In this document: one piece after another, positions 7,355 through 14,033 of the stretch | Layout of the letters: every line of letters begins with the position of its first letter | Position numbering within the stretch: the stretch's first letter is position 1 | From: Opitutus sp. GAS368 | Lineage (GTDB): Bacteria; Verrucomicrobiota; Verrucomicrobiia; Opitutales; Opitutaceae | Direction: 5' to 3' | Assembly (NCBI GenBank): GCA_945861645.1 | Contig: CAMAVZ010000001.1 | Coordinates: 64,001-128,000, forward strand | DNA length: 64,000 bases | Notes under the pieces: generated by a model | What the model was told of the DNA's origin: nothing | Database searches by the model: none | Seen by the model: only the letters and a program-made list of their open reading frames with translations | Position numbers and translations under genes: made by a program

Positions 7355-8257
7355 CTAAACGGCACTCGCCAAAATATTCGCGTTATTGAGGTGCTCGACG
7401 CCGGTGTACTTCAGCGACTGCTCATCAGCGTGATAACTTGAGCGGACGAGTGGGCCGCTTTCCACGGTGCCGAGACCTGCCGCTAGAGCAAAATCCTTCC
7501 AGTGTTTAAATTCCTCTGGCGTTACCCACCGGTCGATCTTCCAATGCTGCGGCGTTGGTTGGAGGTACTGGCCGAGCGTGAGAATGTCGGTTTTGTCACT
7601 GGCAATATCGCGTAGGCATTGCTCGATCTCGGTGGGCGTCTCGCCGAGGCCGAGCATAATGCCGGTTTTTGTGATGAAGCCGCGGCTCTTGGCGTGGCGG
7701 AGCACGCTGCGGCTGCGATCATAACGCGCCTGCACGCGCACAGGTTTTTGCAGCCGCTCCACCGTTTCAACGTTGTGGTTAAAAATATCCGGTCGGGCAT
7801 CGAGCACGAGATCGACCTGATTAAAGTTTCCTTTGAAATCTGGCACGAGCACCTCAATCGCGCAGTGCGGATTTTTATGCTTGGTCGCGCGAATAGTTGC
7901 CGCCCAGACGCTGGCGCCGCCGTCGGCGAGATCATCGCGGGCCACGGAGGTAATGACGCAATGTTTGAGCCCCATTTTTGCGACGGCATCAGCCACGCGG
8001 GCCGGTTCCCCAAGGTCGAATTCGGTGGGCCGGCCGGTTTGGATCGCGCAGAAATTGCAGGAGCGCGTGCATATATTGCCCAAGATCATGACCGTGGCGG
8101 TGCCGCGCGACCAGCATTCCCCGATGTTGGGGCATTGGGCGCTCTGACATACCGTATGAAGCTTATTTTCCTCCACGAGGCGCCGCGTCGCCTGATAGGC
8201 GGGGCCGGCGGGCAATTTGGCGCGGAGCCAGTCAGGTTTGCGAGTAGGGGGATTCAT
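7355..8257 (-). CDS. lipA: Lipoyl synthase
   Basis: RKPDWL; CQSAQCPNIGEC; radical-SAM motif CTRSCNFC; RSSYHA. Confidence 0.97.
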   Translation of the reverse strand: MNPPTRKPDWLRAKLPAGPAYQATRRLVEENKLHTVCQSAQCPNIGECWSRGTATVMILGNICTRSCNFCAIQTGRPTEFDLGEPARVADAVAKMGLKHCVITSVARDDLADGGASVWAATIRATKHKNPHCAIEVLVPDFKGNFNQVDLVLDARPDIFNHNVETVERLQKPVRVQARYDRSRSVLRHAKSRGFITKTGIMLGLGETPTEIEQCLRDIASDKTDILTLGQYLQPTPQHWKIDRWVTPEEFKHWKDFALAAGLGTVESGPLVRSSYHADEQSLKYTGVEHLNNANILASAV

Positions 8258-8883
8258 TTTTCGACCTCCGCCACGACCGGCTCTTCGACCGGTTCGGCGG
8301 TCTCATCCCAGAGGCTCGGGGCTCCACGGCGTTGGGCCAGCCATTCCATGATGCCAGCAAAAAGTCCTGTGAACAGGAGATCGCCGAAAAGCGTGTTACG
8401 GAAAAAGAAAAGGGTGGGCGGATATTCTGGATGGCCAATGGTCAGCGCCTGCCACCAGCCGGCCAAGGTTTTCGCGTAAAAGACATCCCCAGCCCACGAT
8501 TGAGTATTGGTCACAAGGTAGAAAATTATCGCCCCGAGCAGGCCGCCATTGAGCAAACTGAGCCAAGATTTGCGCGAGCGCACCCACGCGCCGATGAGCA
8601 GTGCGCCGCCAAAACAAGCGGTGCGCGCGCCTAGGCCGGCGAGGGACCAGTGGAAGCCGTATTCGCGGGCGTAAAAATGATTGAGGTAAAGATCAGATAA
8701 AGCGAGGGCGCCAAAAGGAAGCGCCCAGCGCCAGCCGGGGCGAAAATAAACCCCGCCACAGAACGCGATCGCCATCACCGGAGAGAAATTAACGAGGGAC
8801 GGGTCAACCGTCGGAGCGAGTCGCGCGAGGGCCGCGAGCACGAGTAAAATAACGGCGATGAGCATGGTAATGAGTTTAGGCAC
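8254..8883 (-). CDS. DUF6580-type putative transporter (ECF S-component-like)
   Basis: NFSPVMAIAF, LSDL, IFYLVTN..W, FFRNTLFGDL; multiple TMs; 4-bp overlap with lipA. Start uncertain. Confidence 0.7.
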   Translation of the reverse strand: MPKLITMLIAVILLVLAALARLAPTVDPSLVNFSPVMAIAFCGGVYFRPGWRWALPFGALALSDLYLNHFYAREYGFHWSLAGLGARTACFGGALLIGAWVRSRKSWLSLLNGGLLGAIIFYLVTNTQSWAGDVFYAKTLAGWWQALTIGHPEYPPTLFFFRNTLFGDLLFTGLFAGIMEWLAQRRGAPSLWDETAEPVEEPVVAEVEK

Positions 8884-9469: not shown

Positions 9470-10039
9470 TTAAGATTTTTCCGCCAATTTACGGGTGCGC
9501 TTTTTCAAAGCTTTTACCAGAAGATCGATGTCGTTTAGGCTTGGCTTGGTCATGCGATCGATGAAGAGCACGCCATTCAGGTGATCAACCTCATGTTGCA
9601 CGCAGCGGCTCAACAGGCCATTGCAATGGAGGGTGTGATCGTGGCCGGCGGTGTCTTGAAATGTTACGGTGATGGTCTCAGGTCGCACCACATCGCCGCG
9701 GATTTTAGGGAAAGACAAACAGCCCTCCTCTGCAATGGCGGTGGGTTCGACCACCGATGTTACCTCGGGATTAACCAACACCAGCGGCATAAACAGATCC
9801 AGTGGCAGATGGGTGCCATCGTAGGTCCACTTAAATTTTGCTTCGACCCCGCTGAGGTCGACGACGCAAAGCTGCAGGGCTTCGCCGATTTGCTGAGCGG
9901 CCAGACCGATCCCTTCGGCCGCGTGCATGGTATCGATCATGACTGCAGCCAAGTGACGCAGGTGAGCGTTGTAGGCGGTGACCTTAGCGCCTTGCTTGCG
10001 CAAAATCGGATGGTTATAGTGAACAATTGGCAGCGACAT
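9470..10039 (-). CDS. def: Peptide deformylase
   Basis: GIGLAAQQ, EGCLS, QHEVDHLNG. Confidence 0.97.
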   Translation of the reverse strand: MSLPIVHYNHPILRKQGAKVTAYNAHLRHLAAVMIDTMHAAEGIGLAAQQIGEALQLCVVDLSGVEAKFKWTYDGTHLPLDLFMPLVLVNPEVTSVVEPTAIAEEGCLSFPKIRGDVVRPETITVTFQDTAGHDHTLHCNGLLSRCVQHEVDHLNGVLFIDRMTKPSLNDIDLLVKALKKRTRKLAEKS

Positions 10040-10118
10040 TGGTCTGAGTTAAGTTCGCTAGTGTATTTGTTTGTGCCGGCGCGCGGCAAATAAATTTGTT
10101 TCCGCCAGCTTAACCGTT

Positions 10119-11789
10119 ATGTCTTCCGCCATGCCCATCAATTCCCGACCGACCGACGCCCGGGCTGCTCCCTGGCAGCTCTGGCTGGGGTTGGGCGTAG
10201 GGCTGTTGGCCGTGGCTTGGCTACTCCCAGTCAATGTTAAGTCCCTCAATGTCGCGCTGCTTCGTGAGGCCGGCCGGGGGACCCAAAGCGTCGCAGGTTT
10301 TGGGCGCGACTTGCTCGAATTAGATAAACCAGGCCCCGCCGCGCTGGTGTTAGCCGCGGCGAAAAAAACGGGCGATAGTGGCGCGGGCGCTCTCGAGATG
10401 ATCGCCGATAATTTTTCCCGTCAGCATCGCGAGATGATGCCATGGGGAGGATGGGATGTCGCGCTGGAGCCCTTGCTGGCCAACCGCAACGCCGCCGCTT
10501 CGGCGGCTTCGCAGCCGGTGCTCAAGTTTATGATCTTGCCGCAGGCGCGCGATAATCTCCGGCGTTATCTGACCGTCTCGCGCTTACCTGCGGTCCAAAC
10601 TTTGCTGAAGACGGCAGCGCTGACTACGACGCAGCGCTTTGTGCCAGCTAATCGTCCGGGCGGACAACCGTTGGAAGCGGTTATCTTACTGACCGCTTAT
10701 CTTTGGCAGACCGAGCATCTCTCGGCTCCCCTGCAGCGTGAGGTGCGGGCTCTCGCAGAACGAGCGGTCCAGTCAGGGCAGATGGGCGAGTTGGAGGATT
10801 TTTATTTGGATATTCTCACGCTGGGTCAGCGGCTGAATTGGATTCAGTTAGCGGAGCTTTTGCGCACGACGGGCAGTCTCGGGACGGTGGGGCAATTTGC
10901 GCATTTGACGCGCATGGCCCCGGAGCATCTGCCGATTATTTATACGGCGGCCTTGATGGCTAAATCCGCCGACACCGTCGCGCATTATCTCATTACCTAT
11001 GGCCGACGCGGCCTCGATAGCTTGCAACTGGCGCTTTCCTTTGGCGCAGGAGCGGTGGTGCAACTGGTGCAACGGCAAGTGCCAGTTACGAGTGGGGCGG
11101 GACTAGAATTTGAATGGGGGGCCGCCTTTGCCCTGCGTCATCCTGAGCTCGCGCTCTTGGCAAAATACGCGGCTTTTCTGGGAGGCATCTTTCTGCTGCT
11201 CCGGGCCGTCGATACGGGGCTTTTTTTTACGGTGGAAGCAACCTTGCGCAGTGCTTTTCCCCGCATGAGTAGCGGCCTGATTGCGATCATTCTCACTTTT
11301 ATCTTTTTTGTCTTTTCGGAGCCTTTTTTGTTAAAGGCTGCTCCCGTTTCTGATTATAAAATTAAACTCACTATTCCAGTTATCGGCGCCTTGGCGGCGC
11401 CGGTGACGAGCGAAGTAACCACCCCCACCACCATGGACCTCTCCACCATTCTCTCGATCACGCTGTTCGCCTGCTTGCAGGTCGGCATGTACGTTATCTG
11501 TTTGCTGAAAATCGCCGAGATCGACCGGCAGACCTTGGTCGCCACCGCTAAGCTCCGCCTCATGGAGAATGAGGAAAATCTGTTTGATGGGGGACTCTAC
11601 CTGGGCATTGCTGGCACCGCGACCGCGCTGGTGCTGCAAGTCCTCGGCGTGATCGATGCGAACTTATTAGCGGCTTATTCCTCCAACTTGTTTGGCATTG
11701 TCTGCGTGGCCCTCGTGAAGATCCGTCACGTGCGACCCTATAAGCGGAAACTGATTGTGGAATCACTAGGCACCGCCGCGACGGTTTAA
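10119..11789 (+). CDS. Hypothetical membrane protein with large periplasmic domain and C-terminal MotA/TolQ/ExbB-like 3-TM module
   Basis: About 6 TMs; C-terminal LGIAGT and AAYSSNLFGI resemble the ExbB/ZorA TM2-TM3 motifs. Start at 10119 or 10131. Confidence 0.6.
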   Translation: MSSAMPINSRPTDARAAPWQLWLGLGVGLLAVAWLLPVNVKSLNVALLREAGRGTQSVAGFGRDLLELDKPGPAALVLAAAKKTGDSGAGALEMIADNFSRQHREMMPWGGWDVALEPLLANRNAAASAASQPVLKFMILPQARDNLRRYLTVSRLPAVQTLLKTAALTTTQRFVPANRPGGQPLEAVILLTAYLWQTEHLSAPLQREVRALAERAVQSGQMGELEDFYLDILTLGQRLNWIQLAELLRTTGSLGTVGQFAHLTRMAPEHLPIIYTAALMAKSADTVAHYLITYGRRGLDSLQLALSFGAGAVVQLVQRQVPVTSGAGLEFEWGAAFALRHPELALLAKYAAFLGGIFLLLRAVDTGLFFTVEATLRSAFPRMSSGLIAIILTFIFFVFSEPFLLKAAPVSDYKIKLTIPVIGALAAPVTSEVTTPTTMDLSTILSITLFACLQVGMYVICLLKIAEIDRQTLVATAKLRLMENEENLFDGGLYLGIAGTATALVLQVLGVIDANLLAAYSSNLFGIVCVALVKIRHVRPYKRKLIVESLGTAATV

Positions 11790-11801
11790 GGAGACTGCGC
11801 G

Positions 11802-13190
11802 ATGAACAAGACGCTCTTATTAATTATGTGCGACTTTATGTTGCTCAATCTCCTCGCGCTCACGCGCTGGGAGAAAGCGGAGCCATCGCATACGCAGCTC
11901 GAGTCCGCGGCCCCGCGCTCGGCCGTCAATGCGCCCGCCATCAATGCGGACATGGTCGAGTTGATGCGCCTCACGCTCGAGGATGAAAAAACTGCCCGCG
12001 ACGCACTCGCCACGCAGCTAGCCGCCACGCGGGGTTCTTTGTCAGAGCGCGAGAAAAATCTGGCCGCGCTGCAACAGCAGAAGGGCCAGCTTGAAAATTC
12101 CTTGGCGGCCAACCAATCGAGTACCCGCGAGTTAGAGAAACGCTTTACGGCCACCGCGCAGGAGGCGGCCTTGTCCAAGGAACAGTTGGCCAAAATGCAG
12201 CGCGAACTGGAAGAGCGTCGCGCTGAGGCGGAGCGACAGAAAGCTGAGTTGGTGCGCTTGGATCGGCAAAATGCCGAAGCCCGGCAGCGGATTGAAAATC
12301 TTAATGTCGCCGTCCGCGTGGCCGAGCAGGAAAAAAAGTTGATTAGTCAAAACCTGACCGAGGCCAAACAGCAGGTGGAAGTCGAGCGACTCGAGCGCGC
12401 TAAAGTGCAGGAGCAAACTTCGCAGCTGACGCTGGGCGTGGGTCAATTGGCCCAACAATCAGGCGCCCTGAGTCAGGAGATTCGCAGTAATCGGCCCATT
12501 AATCCCAATATTATCTTCAGCGAATTTTTGGCGAATCGGGTGCAATCAAAATTTATTGCGCGCCGGCCAGGATTATTTAGCCCGACCGTGAAGGAGCATA
12601 ACACGCAAACGATTTTGGTGAGCGATGGTCAGCAAATTTATGCGCTGATGCATTTGAGCGACACGCCTTTTGTGTTGGGAGAAATTGCGATCGATTATGA
12701 TCAAGTAGCGGGTCGGCTGACCCGGGGTTCCTTCAGCGCGCCCTTGGCTGAGCTGCATTTTCTACGCTTGGATCCGCGCGTGATGGTGGCGCCGATCGAT
12801 GCCTCGCTGGCGGCCCTGATGGGTGGGAAAATCTATCGGCTGGCAGCGGAGCCTTTTAAATTTCCCGAAGCTGTCTTGGTGCGCGCGGATGACGGTCGTT
12901 ACGGCGAGACGCCCTTCCGCATTGACGCAGCTAACGCCAGCTACGTGAAGCTCGACAACCGAATTACCACGCGACTCTTCGGGGAAATCGCGCCCAAGCG
13001 CGGCGATCTCGTTTTTAGCAAAACGGGCGATCTGATTGGCATGATGGTCAACAGCGACTACTGCGCCGTGCTCGGTAATTTTACGGCCGCTTACATTCTG
13101 AAGACCGGAGAAAATCCTGAACCAAAGACGAGCGTCGTTTTATCGGAAGCATATACCCGGCTCCAGCGGTTACCTTTTAAATTACAGTGA
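11802..13190 (+). CDS. Hypothetical protein: N-terminal Asp-containing TM, long coiled coil, C-terminal trypsin-like fold
   Basis: LLLIMCDFMLLNLLAL; E/Q/R/K/L heptad region about aa 50-230; GDLVFSKTGDLIGMMVN resembles the PA-clan C-terminal strands. Confidence 0.6.
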   Translation: MNKTLLLIMCDFMLLNLLALTRWEKAEPSHTQLESAAPRSAVNAPAINADMVELMRLTLEDEKTARDALATQLAATRGSLSEREKNLAALQQQKGQLENSLAANQSSTRELEKRFTATAQEAALSKEQLAKMQRELEERRAEAERQKAELVRLDRQNAEARQRIENLNVAVRVAEQEKKLISQNLTEAKQQVEVERLERAKVQEQTSQLTLGVGQLAQQSGALSQEIRSNRPINPNIIFSEFLANRVQSKFIARRPGLFSPTVKEHNTQTILVSDGQQIYALMHLSDTPFVLGEIAIDYDQVAGRLTRGSFSAPLAELHFLRLDPRVMVAPIDASLAALMGGKIYRLAAEPFKFPEAVLVRADDGRYGETPFRIDAANASYVKLDNRITTRLFGEIAPKRGDLVFSKTGDLIGMMVNSDYCAVLGNFTAAYILKTGENPEPKTSVVLSEAYTRLQRLPFKLQ

Positions 13191-13262
13191 GGCGTTGGGC
13201 CCCGTCGGTGTACTCCGATCACAATTTTCCGGGTCTCTAATCGTCGTGGTCGATGCTTGAGC

Positions 13263-14033
13263 TTACAGACTCGTTGGTAAGGTGAGTTCGCGCACCCAGA
13301 TATTGCGAAAGGCGATGGGATTGCGGTGATCCTGTAGCATGAGCGGAAGTTTGGCGGCATGCGGAACATATTTGGGCTCGCCGCGATAAACTGTCGGGCC
13401 GCGCACGATGGCATCGTGCTGCACGAGCACGCCATTATGTAAAACCGTCAGCCGCGCGGGGCTGAGCAGGGTGCCATCCGCGGCAAAGCGCGGGGCTATA
13501 AAGACGGCCTCATAGGTCTGCCACTCGCCCGGGGGGCGACTGGCATTTACGAGCGGGGGATGCTGTTTATAAATTGAGCCGGCTTGGCCATTGACGTACG
13601 TGGGGTTATTAGACGAATCGAGCACCTGCAATTCATAGAGCCCCATGAAAAATACTCCGCTGTTGCCGCGGCCTTGACTCGAACCGACGACTTGGGCCGG
13701 AGTGCGAAATTCGAGATGCAGCTGGACGTCGCCGAAAGATTGTTTCGTCTGTTGATCATATGTGGGCGCAGGCGCGGGCTTAGTCGCCACCACCATTGCG
13801 CCAGCTTCAATCTGCCAAAGGTGGCCGTTGGCCTTGACTGGCTTCCAGGCCGCGAGCGAGGTGCCGTCGAATAATACGAAGGCGTCGGAGGGAACAAGGC
13901 CCGCGGTTGCCGTGACTACCGCTGGTACGGGCTGCCAATATTCCGTCACTTCAGGGGGCGGGAGATTTTCGGCATAGGTCAATCCAGTTAGGCCCGATAA
14001 TAAAAATAGGGCAGCGGAGGTGGGGCGCGTCAT
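13263..14033 (-). CDS. DUF1080 (3-keto-disaccharide hydrolase-like) secreted protein
   Basis: Signal peptide; LFDG, GNSGVF, YELQVLD, LQDH..P..FRNIW. Confidence 0.88.
   Translation of the reverse strand: MTRPTSAALFLLSGLTGLTYAENLPPPEVTEYWQPVPAVVTATAGLVPSDAFVLFDGTSLAAWKPVKANGHLWQIEAGAMVVATKPAPAPTYDQQTKQSFGDVQLHLEFRTPAQVVGSSQGRGNSGVFFMGLYELQVLDSSNNPTYVNGQAGSIYKQHPPLVNASRPPGEWQTYEAVFIAPRFAADGTLLSPARLTVLHNGVLVQHDAIVRGPTVYRGEPKYVPHAAKLPLMLQDHRNPIAFRNIWVRELTLPTSL

Follow-up and report, generated by a model that had tools for sequence, protein, structure and literature searches.

A conserved, unannotated gene pair of Verrucomicrobiota resembling an ion-driven envelope motor with a protease-like head

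A 64,000-nucleotide stretch of the Opitutus sp. GAS368 genome (phylum Verrucomicrobiota; positions 64,001 to 128,000 of contig CAMAVZ010000001.1, assembly GCA_945861645.1), called the window below, contains two adjacent genes without annotation, here named A and B. A encodes a polytopic membrane protein and B a protein with a single N-terminal membrane helix, a long stalk and a trypsin-like head (Table 1). On the evidence given below, we lean towards the view that A and B build an ion-driven motor of the 5:2 type, in which the B dimer itself would be the periplasmic force transducer. A divergent 5:2 motor had been proposed in an original prediction made from the window alone. Of that proposal, the pairing of the two genes, the aspartate of B (Asp11) and the two hydroxyl residues of A (Thr500 and Ser522) proved conserved, while homology of A to MotA/ExbB did not reach significance.

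Table 1 Features of genes A and B (positions count from the first letter of the window; TM, transmembrane helix; ORF, open reading frame; AF2, AlphaFold2)
Feature	Position	Strand	Description and basis
Gene A	10119-11789	+	556-amino-acid polytopic inner-membrane protein; ORF list, translation, orthologues of 549-556 amino acids, AF2 model
A TM1, residues 19-40	10173-10238	+	Hydropathy; helix 19-35 in the model
A all-helical domain, residues 45-340	10251-11138	+	AF2 model; predicted to be periplasmic
A TM2 (residues 342-367) and TM3 (residues 380-400)	11142-11318	+	Hydropathy, conservation, model; followed by invariant Glu401-Pro402
A C-terminal core module, residues 438-556	11430-11786	+	TM4, short acidic cytoplasmic helix (ENEENLFD), TM5-TM6 hairpin
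A LGIAGT, residues 495-500, in TM5	11601-11618	+	Gly496 and Gly499 invariant
A AAYSSNLFGI, residues 518-527, in TM6	11670-11699	+	Ser522 (80/80) and Gly526 invariant
Ribosome-binding site of B, GGAG	11790-11793	+	Directly after the A stop codon, 8 nucleotides before the B ATG; sequence
Gene B	11802-13190	+	462-amino-acid bitopic protein; ORF list, translation
B transmembrane helix, residues 4-21 (hydrophobic from 3)	11811-11864	+	Hydropathy, N-terminal alignment
B coiled-coil stalk, residues ~45-230	11934-12491	+	Weak matches to coiled-coil families only
B trypsin/HtrA-like double beta-barrel, residues ~231-456	12492-13169	+	AF2, Foldseek, VIA-align, conserved columns

In every locus compared, from Opitutales, Lentisphaeria and Kiritimatiellales, A was followed by B. 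With B defined by position only, as the next downstream ORF on the same strand, it stood directly after A in five of five distant Opitutales genomes and in all 57 loci that were fetched, 56 of them recognised automatically and one (L084) by tblastn at 50% identity. In a second set, all 79 loci that contained an A ORF had B behind it. Here 73 cases were automatic, and visual inspection explained the other six by alternative starts, a GTG start or a wrongly picked ORF. The two sets overlap in several contigs, and the related genomes in them are not independent. The spacing between the genes is often -3 to +20 nucleotides. A and B were the only gene families common to all 26 loci with wide neighbourhoods, and no third gene was shared by all of these 26. 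The original prediction had made the motor depend on a gene pairing conserved across Verrucomicrobiota, and such a pairing is what the two sets of loci revealed.

B begins with a cytoplasmic tail of only three to four residues followed by its membrane helix. The lone Asp that had been noticed in this helix is residue 11 (codon 11832-11834), about one third of the way into the helix from the cytoplasmic side. Met1 and Asp11 were the sole invariant columns among 55 distinct B N-termini. Among the 56 automatic loci, 55 had Asp at residue 11, and the remaining one was L076, with an upstream start. Since the remainder of B drops to 12-17% identity between relatives, the conservation of Asp11 goes beyond chance. 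The residues around it are similar to those in ExbD/TolR, for example MIDVMVLSVLAL in Kiritimatiellales.

The candidate partner residues lie in the C-terminal core module of A. The structure of A was modelled with AlphaFold2 (AF2) from 80 diverse relatives (predicted local distance difference test score, pLDDT, 90.3; predicted template modelling score, pTM, 0.86) and read together with hydropathy. The helices of the module span residues 441-470 (TM4), 475-489, 491-508 (TM5) and 516-555 (TM6), preceded by a 40-residue loop (401-440) that is disordered in the model. The module is the best-conserved part of A: 13 of 16 invariant columns fall within residues 450-539, and the invariant residues include Phe450, Gln454, Asn484, Glu485, Gly496, Gly499, Ser522, Gly526, Lys534 and Arg539. 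Two motifs are prominent, G(L/I)xGT and AYSS(T/N)LxGI. The first, LGIAGT in TM5, was seen in the original prediction and is confirmed here; its Thr500 is kept in 78 of 80 sequences and replaced by S in the other two, and the Ser of AYSS is S in all 80. The second had been likened to the A(L/F)x(T/S)(T/S)xxG helix of known motors. The family consensus, AYSSTLFGI, does fit this pattern, but AAYSSNLFGI of the present genome fails strictly at Asn523, where 55 of 80 relatives have Thr. Because the C-terminus of A is rich in K/R and the N-termini of short forms of A are rich in K, the C-terminus and the 470-490 loop are probably cytoplasmic and the 300-residue helical domain periplasmic.

With this topology nearly all of the mass of A and B would be periplasmic, and neither protein has a cytoplasmic ATPase or nucleotide-binding domain. 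Therefore, if the machine is active, an ion gradient is its only possible drive. Since little of either protein reaches into the cytoplasm, where A nearly lacks a domain and B a tail, the work would be delivered in the periplasm. A motor is the most economical reading because it accounts together for the Asp of B, the Thr, Ser and Gly residues in the hairpin of its partner, the A-to-B gene order and the periplasmic stalk. As regards stoichiometry, ion coupling, movement and target, such a motor might be built as follows. The last three helices of A would form a ring with TM4 outside and the TM5-TM6 hairpin inside, and two B chains, as a dimer, would insert their N-terminal helices into its lumen. 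Asp11 would face Thr500 and Ser522 of A, its protonation and deprotonation would shift B against A, and the stalk would carry a non-catalytic HtrA-like head that binds a target in the envelope. In Opitutales, the periplasmic helical domain of A, about 300 residues long, may surround the B stalk or regulate it. A complex prediction at 4:2, with four copies of A (430-556) and two of B (1-45), scored 0.24 and 0.06 against a mark of 0.32 and has no bearing either way. By extension, A-B may represent a sequence-orphan family of rotary or power-stroke motors across Verrucomicrobiota (Opitutales, Lentisphaeria and Kiritimatiellales), with the smallest A subunit known, a protein of three to four helices without a cytoplasmic domain, and with a B that combines axle and transducer and grips a target in the outer envelope by a pseudoprotease. 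This wider proposal is a tentative one, which we would place just short of probable.

The likeness of A-B to known motors in architecture, motifs and partner is real. A two-motif pattern taken from ExbB/TolQ (G[LIFMV]xG[TS]-x12-40-A[LYIF]x[STA][ST]xxG[LIV]) was found in 29 of 36 PF01618 proteins, in 53 of 80 long forms of A and in 16 of 16 short forms. The background was two unrelated frames among 5,752 of at least 100 amino acids in this genome, and none in five shuffles, so this comparison lends the kinship some weight. Profile-profile alignment (hhalign) of A to 29-36 PF01618 proteins of the same phylum was collinear over three helices, placing TM4 on ExbB TM1, G(L/I)xGT on GLLGTV and AYSST on ALxTT, although not significantly, and implied a deletion of about 58 residues where ExbB has its cytoplasmic domain. 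In structural comparison, the core module (A 438-556) matched ZorA (8qyh_A, Z 9.3, root mean square deviation (rmsd) 4.1, 116 residues aligned), type I ZorA (Z 8.0), ExbB (6ye4_A, Z 7.8) and MotA (8ucs_G, Z 7.0, rmsd 3.6, 103 aligned).

Several results weigh against this reading. The original prediction had proposed comparing the end of A with PF01618 and with motor structures; PF01618 missed A, and the structural matches were not specific. Searches of A against Pfam, NCBIfam and PADLOC gave nothing at E<=10, and PF01618 at E<=1 retrieved three canonical genes of this genome, not A. Among 17 module sequences, one reached PF01618 at E=0.032 (14.4 bits, with a cut-off of 22.9), amid many noise matches to other membrane families. 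The hhalign P values were 0.007-0.035 (probability 1.5-5.4%), a small margin over the reversed-profile controls (P 0.086 and 0.26). Profile searches of the PDB with A, the module and the B N-terminus found no motor chain; only designed helical proteins, FtsX and similar entries stood above E=0.02. At the level of the fold, ribosome recycling factor (Z 11.2), spectrin repeats and designed bundles matched residues 438-556 as well as or better than the motor proteins, so that ZorA, ExbB and MotA do not rise above the background of three-helix bundles, and Foldseek with the whole A model gave nothing in the PDB at E<=0.001. The A of this genome fails the strict two-motif pattern at Asn523, and one of the three PF01618 proteins of the genome likewise fails it. 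Moreover, the TM5-TM6 loop of A is far shorter than that of ExbB, and Asp11 could form a static pair with Lys534, an invariant residue close to where TM6 ends on the cytoplasmic side. Two further searches were made. In the ESM Atlas, A 430-556 had no usable match among named clusters. L056, the one short form that weakly touches PF01618, served as a bridging query and found 91 relatives, all unannotated short forms of the Kiritimatiellales type and none with PF01618. The profile-profile comparison is suggestive only, and membership of A in the MotA/ExbB family is not statistically proven.

This lack of a statistical tie to ion-driven motors leaves room for a passive envelope-spanning scaffold or sensor, in which B would be an anchored coiled-coil ruler with a ligand-binding pseudoprotease head and A its chaperone or anchor, and in which no ions would flow. 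The buried Asp11 would then make no more than a fixed polar contact, to the invariant Lys534 or Gln454 of A for instance. Four residues of A that vary little or not at all (Gln454, Tyr458, Lys534 and Arg539) could indeed hold a charged partner. However, an Asp in a single-pass helix, together with a GxxGT/S-T hairpin in an upstream polytopic partner and a strict gene order, is a motor signature, and a mere anchor needs no three-helix module so conserved across classes. Inward signalling is also hard to picture, as neither protein has a cytoplasmic output domain. We therefore consider a scaffold or sensor unlikely.

A also carries conserved residues outside the two motifs. The invariant Glu401-Pro402 (11310-11324) marks the periplasmic end of TM3, and an invariant acidic cluster (Asn484, Glu485, Phe489 and Asp490, within ENEENLFD, 11568-11591) lies on the cytoplasmic side directly before TM5; in short forms this cluster reads LENADIFFDLPLY. 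Neither element matches a motor motif that we can name, and they may mark an ion exit or a metal site. Conserved polar or acidic residues in or near the helices (Glu401, Gln454, Asn484-Glu485 and Asp490) would also suit an ion channel or small-solute transporter formed by A, with B as a regulatory or localising subunit whose head senses the state of the envelope and gates A. Weak structural matches of A to NCX_Mj (Z 7.6) and CorA/Mrs2 (Z 8.2-8.8) point the same way, but with an rmsd of 5-9 Å they are no better than chance for helical proteins. A short form of three to four helices is small for a transporter, and the invariant Asp in the B helix would be left unexplained. A channel or transporter is accordingly improbable in our view, more so than the scaffold.

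The head of B had been called trypsin-like, and as a fold this was right. Its AF2 model has a pLDDT of 90.2 and gave 105 Foldseek matches in the PDB at E<=0.001 (best 2.8e-5), led by Deg1, the trypsin-like domain of IgA1 protease and HtrA1. The 50 matches listed by VIA-align (Z 11.0-12.8, 153-191 residues aligned) were all trypsin-like proteases or the S1C domain of RsgI9. Within the head the motif RGDLVF.K.G..IG is conserved, and homology is recognisable throughout the phylum (E 1e-5 to 2e-9). Across 57 B sequences, only three Gly, one Asp and one Arg columns were invariant or nearly so, and no Ser or His column of the head was conserved. In a weak alignment with the two HtrA proteins of this genome (P=0.087), PKRGD lies opposite GNSGG, with Arg at the site of the Ser nucleophile. 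B did not match PF13365, and a genome search with this profile at E<=1 found two other genes. An active protease was considered and rejected, given the missing Ser and His columns and the Arg that the weak alignment puts at the nucleophile; judging from these sequences, protease activity of the head is very improbable. The second-best VIA-align match of the head was the S1C-NTF2 structure of RsgI9 (7sjy_B, Z 12.2, 174 residues aligned). The S1C domain of this anti-sigma factor is non-catalytic, a resemblance that agrees with the scaffold or sensor described above.

The stalk between helix and head gave weak matches, all to coiled-coil families (SMC, CENP-F and TolA for residues 41-231). Its roughly 185 residues would measure about 27 nm if they formed a single continuous helix. 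B is 440-544 amino acids long in Opitutales and 485-756 in Lentisphaeria/Kiritimatiellales, where the extra length lies between helix and head. If straight, such longer stalks would far exceed the usual width of the periplasm, so they may fold back or contain further domains.

Among known systems, ExbB-ExbD(-TonB) and TolQ-TolR(-TolA) (PF01618 and PF02472) share most with A-B. Their genes are tightly coupled in the same A-then-B order. ExbB has a three-helix core with the topology proposed here for A (periplasmic N-terminal side, cytoplasmic C-terminus), and ExbB/TolQ have GxxGT and A-x-x-S/T-T-x-x-G motifs in their last two helices. ExbD/TolR, like B, begin with a single membrane helix, in which an invariant Asp lies towards the cytoplasm, and their output is periplasmic. 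In contrast, A has no significant sequence match to ExbB, its cytoplasmic domain is cut down to about 25 residues and its periplasmic hairpin loop to about 7, and the A of Opitutales adds three helices and a 300-amino-acid periplasmic domain. B differs from ExbD/TolR by its long coiled coil and protease-like head, and no separate TonB or TolA adjoins the pair. As a motor, A-B would resemble ExbBD-TonB or TolQRA condensed into two chains. The canonical machinery is present in the same genome: an operon at G000:C40:7012-9100 (L019) encodes TolQ/ExbB (234 amino acids), ExbD/TolR (140 amino acids) and a proline-rich TonB/TolA-like protein (269 amino acids), and two further PF01618 genes exist besides it. 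The A-B pair is therefore additional to the ordinary motors and does not replace them.

In GldM/PorM, a very short N-terminal tail and one helix are followed by a long dimeric periplasmic shaft, and the A-type subunit, GldL/PorL, is small. This architecture is similar to that of A-B, whose B likewise has a short tail, one helix and a long periplasmic shaft. However, the key charges of GldLM are provided by an Arg of GldM and a Glu of GldL instead of an Asp in the B helix. The shaft of GldM consists of globular domains, unlike the coiled coil of B, and A-B showed no Pfam or NCBIfam match to this system and no adjoining type IX genes.

Zorya ZorA-ZorB, a divergent 5:2 unit of the MotAB kind, shares with A-B a very long coiled coil, and ZorA was among the structural matches of A (Z 8.0-9.3). 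The tail of ZorA belongs to the A subunit and is cytoplasmic, whereas the coiled coil here belongs to B and would be periplasmic. A and B did not match ZorA or ZorB in PADLOC, zorC and zorD genes were absent, and the pair is single-copy among housekeeping genes. A Zorya-like anti-phage defence was rejected for these reasons, copy number being mostly one, and because the GC content is even. The HtrA/DegP/DegS S1C proteases and the S1C domain of RsgI9 share the double beta-barrel trypsin fold with residues ~231-456 of B, but the head of B has neither a PF13365 match nor the conserved Ser and His and PDZ domain of HtrA/DegP/DegS.

The original prediction had described the stalk as a long shaft in place of an OmpA or ExbD domain. 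Searches of B in Pfam and NCBIfam found no ExbD/TolR or OmpA-like domain, in agreement with this, but the idea of a shaft has precedents in GldM/PorM and in the transpore-helix-vWA proteins. The latter are described as an Asp-bearing pore helix fused to a periplasmic domain other than ExbD and paired with tolQ-like genes, are proposed to rotate in a pentamer and pull on the envelope without TonB/TolA, and are reported in Verrucomicrobia among other phyla (PMC12204202). They combine a recognisable TolQ homologue with a vWA head, whereas here an A invisible to profiles is combined with an HtrA-like pseudoprotease on a coiled coil.

The A family is large. At least 1,568 relatives were counted in clusters at 90%, none of which has a name or a Pfam domain, and clustering at 50% identity gave 551 groups. 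A was present in 32 of 41 related genomes, namely this genome, 24 of 24 others of the genus and 7 of 16 others of the order, each of these seven from a different family. In a sample of 301 genomes across the phylum, 114 were positive, and all but one of them had a single match. Outside Opitutales and a few other lineages, the match was limited to positions ~430-555 of the A profile, in open frames of ~170-250 amino acids; in Lentisphaeria/Victivallales and Kiritimatiellales the core module thus stands alone as a protein of three to four helices and 170-220 amino acids. Because such a form exists, the C-terminal module is the core of A, and module plus B is the functional unit. The large helical domain is confined to Opitutales-type and a few other long forms and is missing from short forms. 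It had no convincing fold match, only TPR-like pieces of 50 residues (Z 6). In seven of the 26 wide loci, all from short-form lineages, B was followed on the same strand by a Ser/Thr kinase gene of ~660-700 amino acids (PF00069, E=2.6e-34): L053 (6376-8349, +), L051, L055, L057, L058, L061 and L064. The kinase could be a lineage-specific regulator of the pair.

We found no published description of the A-B pair, with the restriction that the supplementary homologue lists of PMC12505986 and PMC12204202, papers available to us in part, might include members. If A-B is a motor, it is a new branch of the 5:2 family that current profiles do not see, and it means that an A subunit can shrink to three helices without a cytoplasmic domain. 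Next to the proposed transpore-helix-vWA proteins, this would be a second case in which the B subunit itself exerts the force, with no TonB or TolA in between, and hence a case of TonB/TolA-independent energising of the outer envelope. It would also point to a hitherto unrecognised energy-dependent envelope process in Verrucomicrobiota. Members of this phylum are important in the turnover of polysaccharides in freshwater, soil, gut and marine environments. Should the motor reading be wrong, the pair would remain a conserved, expressed and wholly unannotated envelope complex with a pseudoprotease head. The pair occurs in the named strains Victivallis vadensis DSM 14823 and Pontiella sulfatireligans F21, so genetics and cryo-electron microscopy may be feasible.

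In the window, A and B are real genes, co-oriented with a gap of 12 bp according to the ORF list and translations, and hydropathy and the AF2 model agree with the topology described earlier. For A, an alternative in-frame TTG start exists at 10071, and ATG 10119 is favoured because it agrees with the 556-amino-acid orthologue P0003. A ends with TAA (11787-11789). As had been stated, both genes lack annotation: no Pfam, NCBIfam or PADLOC family was found, apart from coiled-coil noise in B. The absence of adjoining tonB, tolA, flagellar and zor genes was likewise upheld. The neighbours are housekeeping genes, namely those for peptide deformylase, cobalamin adenosyltransferase, DUF6580, 3-keto-disaccharide hydrolase, MnmA and a phosphodiesterase. 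Since the genes on either side run in the opposite direction or have no relation to A and B, the pair forms a self-contained unit. The DUF6580 gene (8254-8883, -; E=1e-33) encodes a membrane protein and lies between the genes for lipoyl synthase and the adenosyltransferase; it did not recur next to the pair in other loci. GC content is uniform over the window, and scanning 9900-13500 for promoters and terminators yielded fewer sites than shuffled sequences did. Metatranscriptome contigs from four runs in three studies span both genes and the A/B junction, which fits expression of A and B as one unit and does not prove a single transcript; stretches left uncovered in a given run carry no meaning. 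Run X15 gave a 500-nucleotide RNA contig at 11385-11884 with one difference, and run X16 a 3,173-nucleotide RNA contig from a strain about 95% identical.

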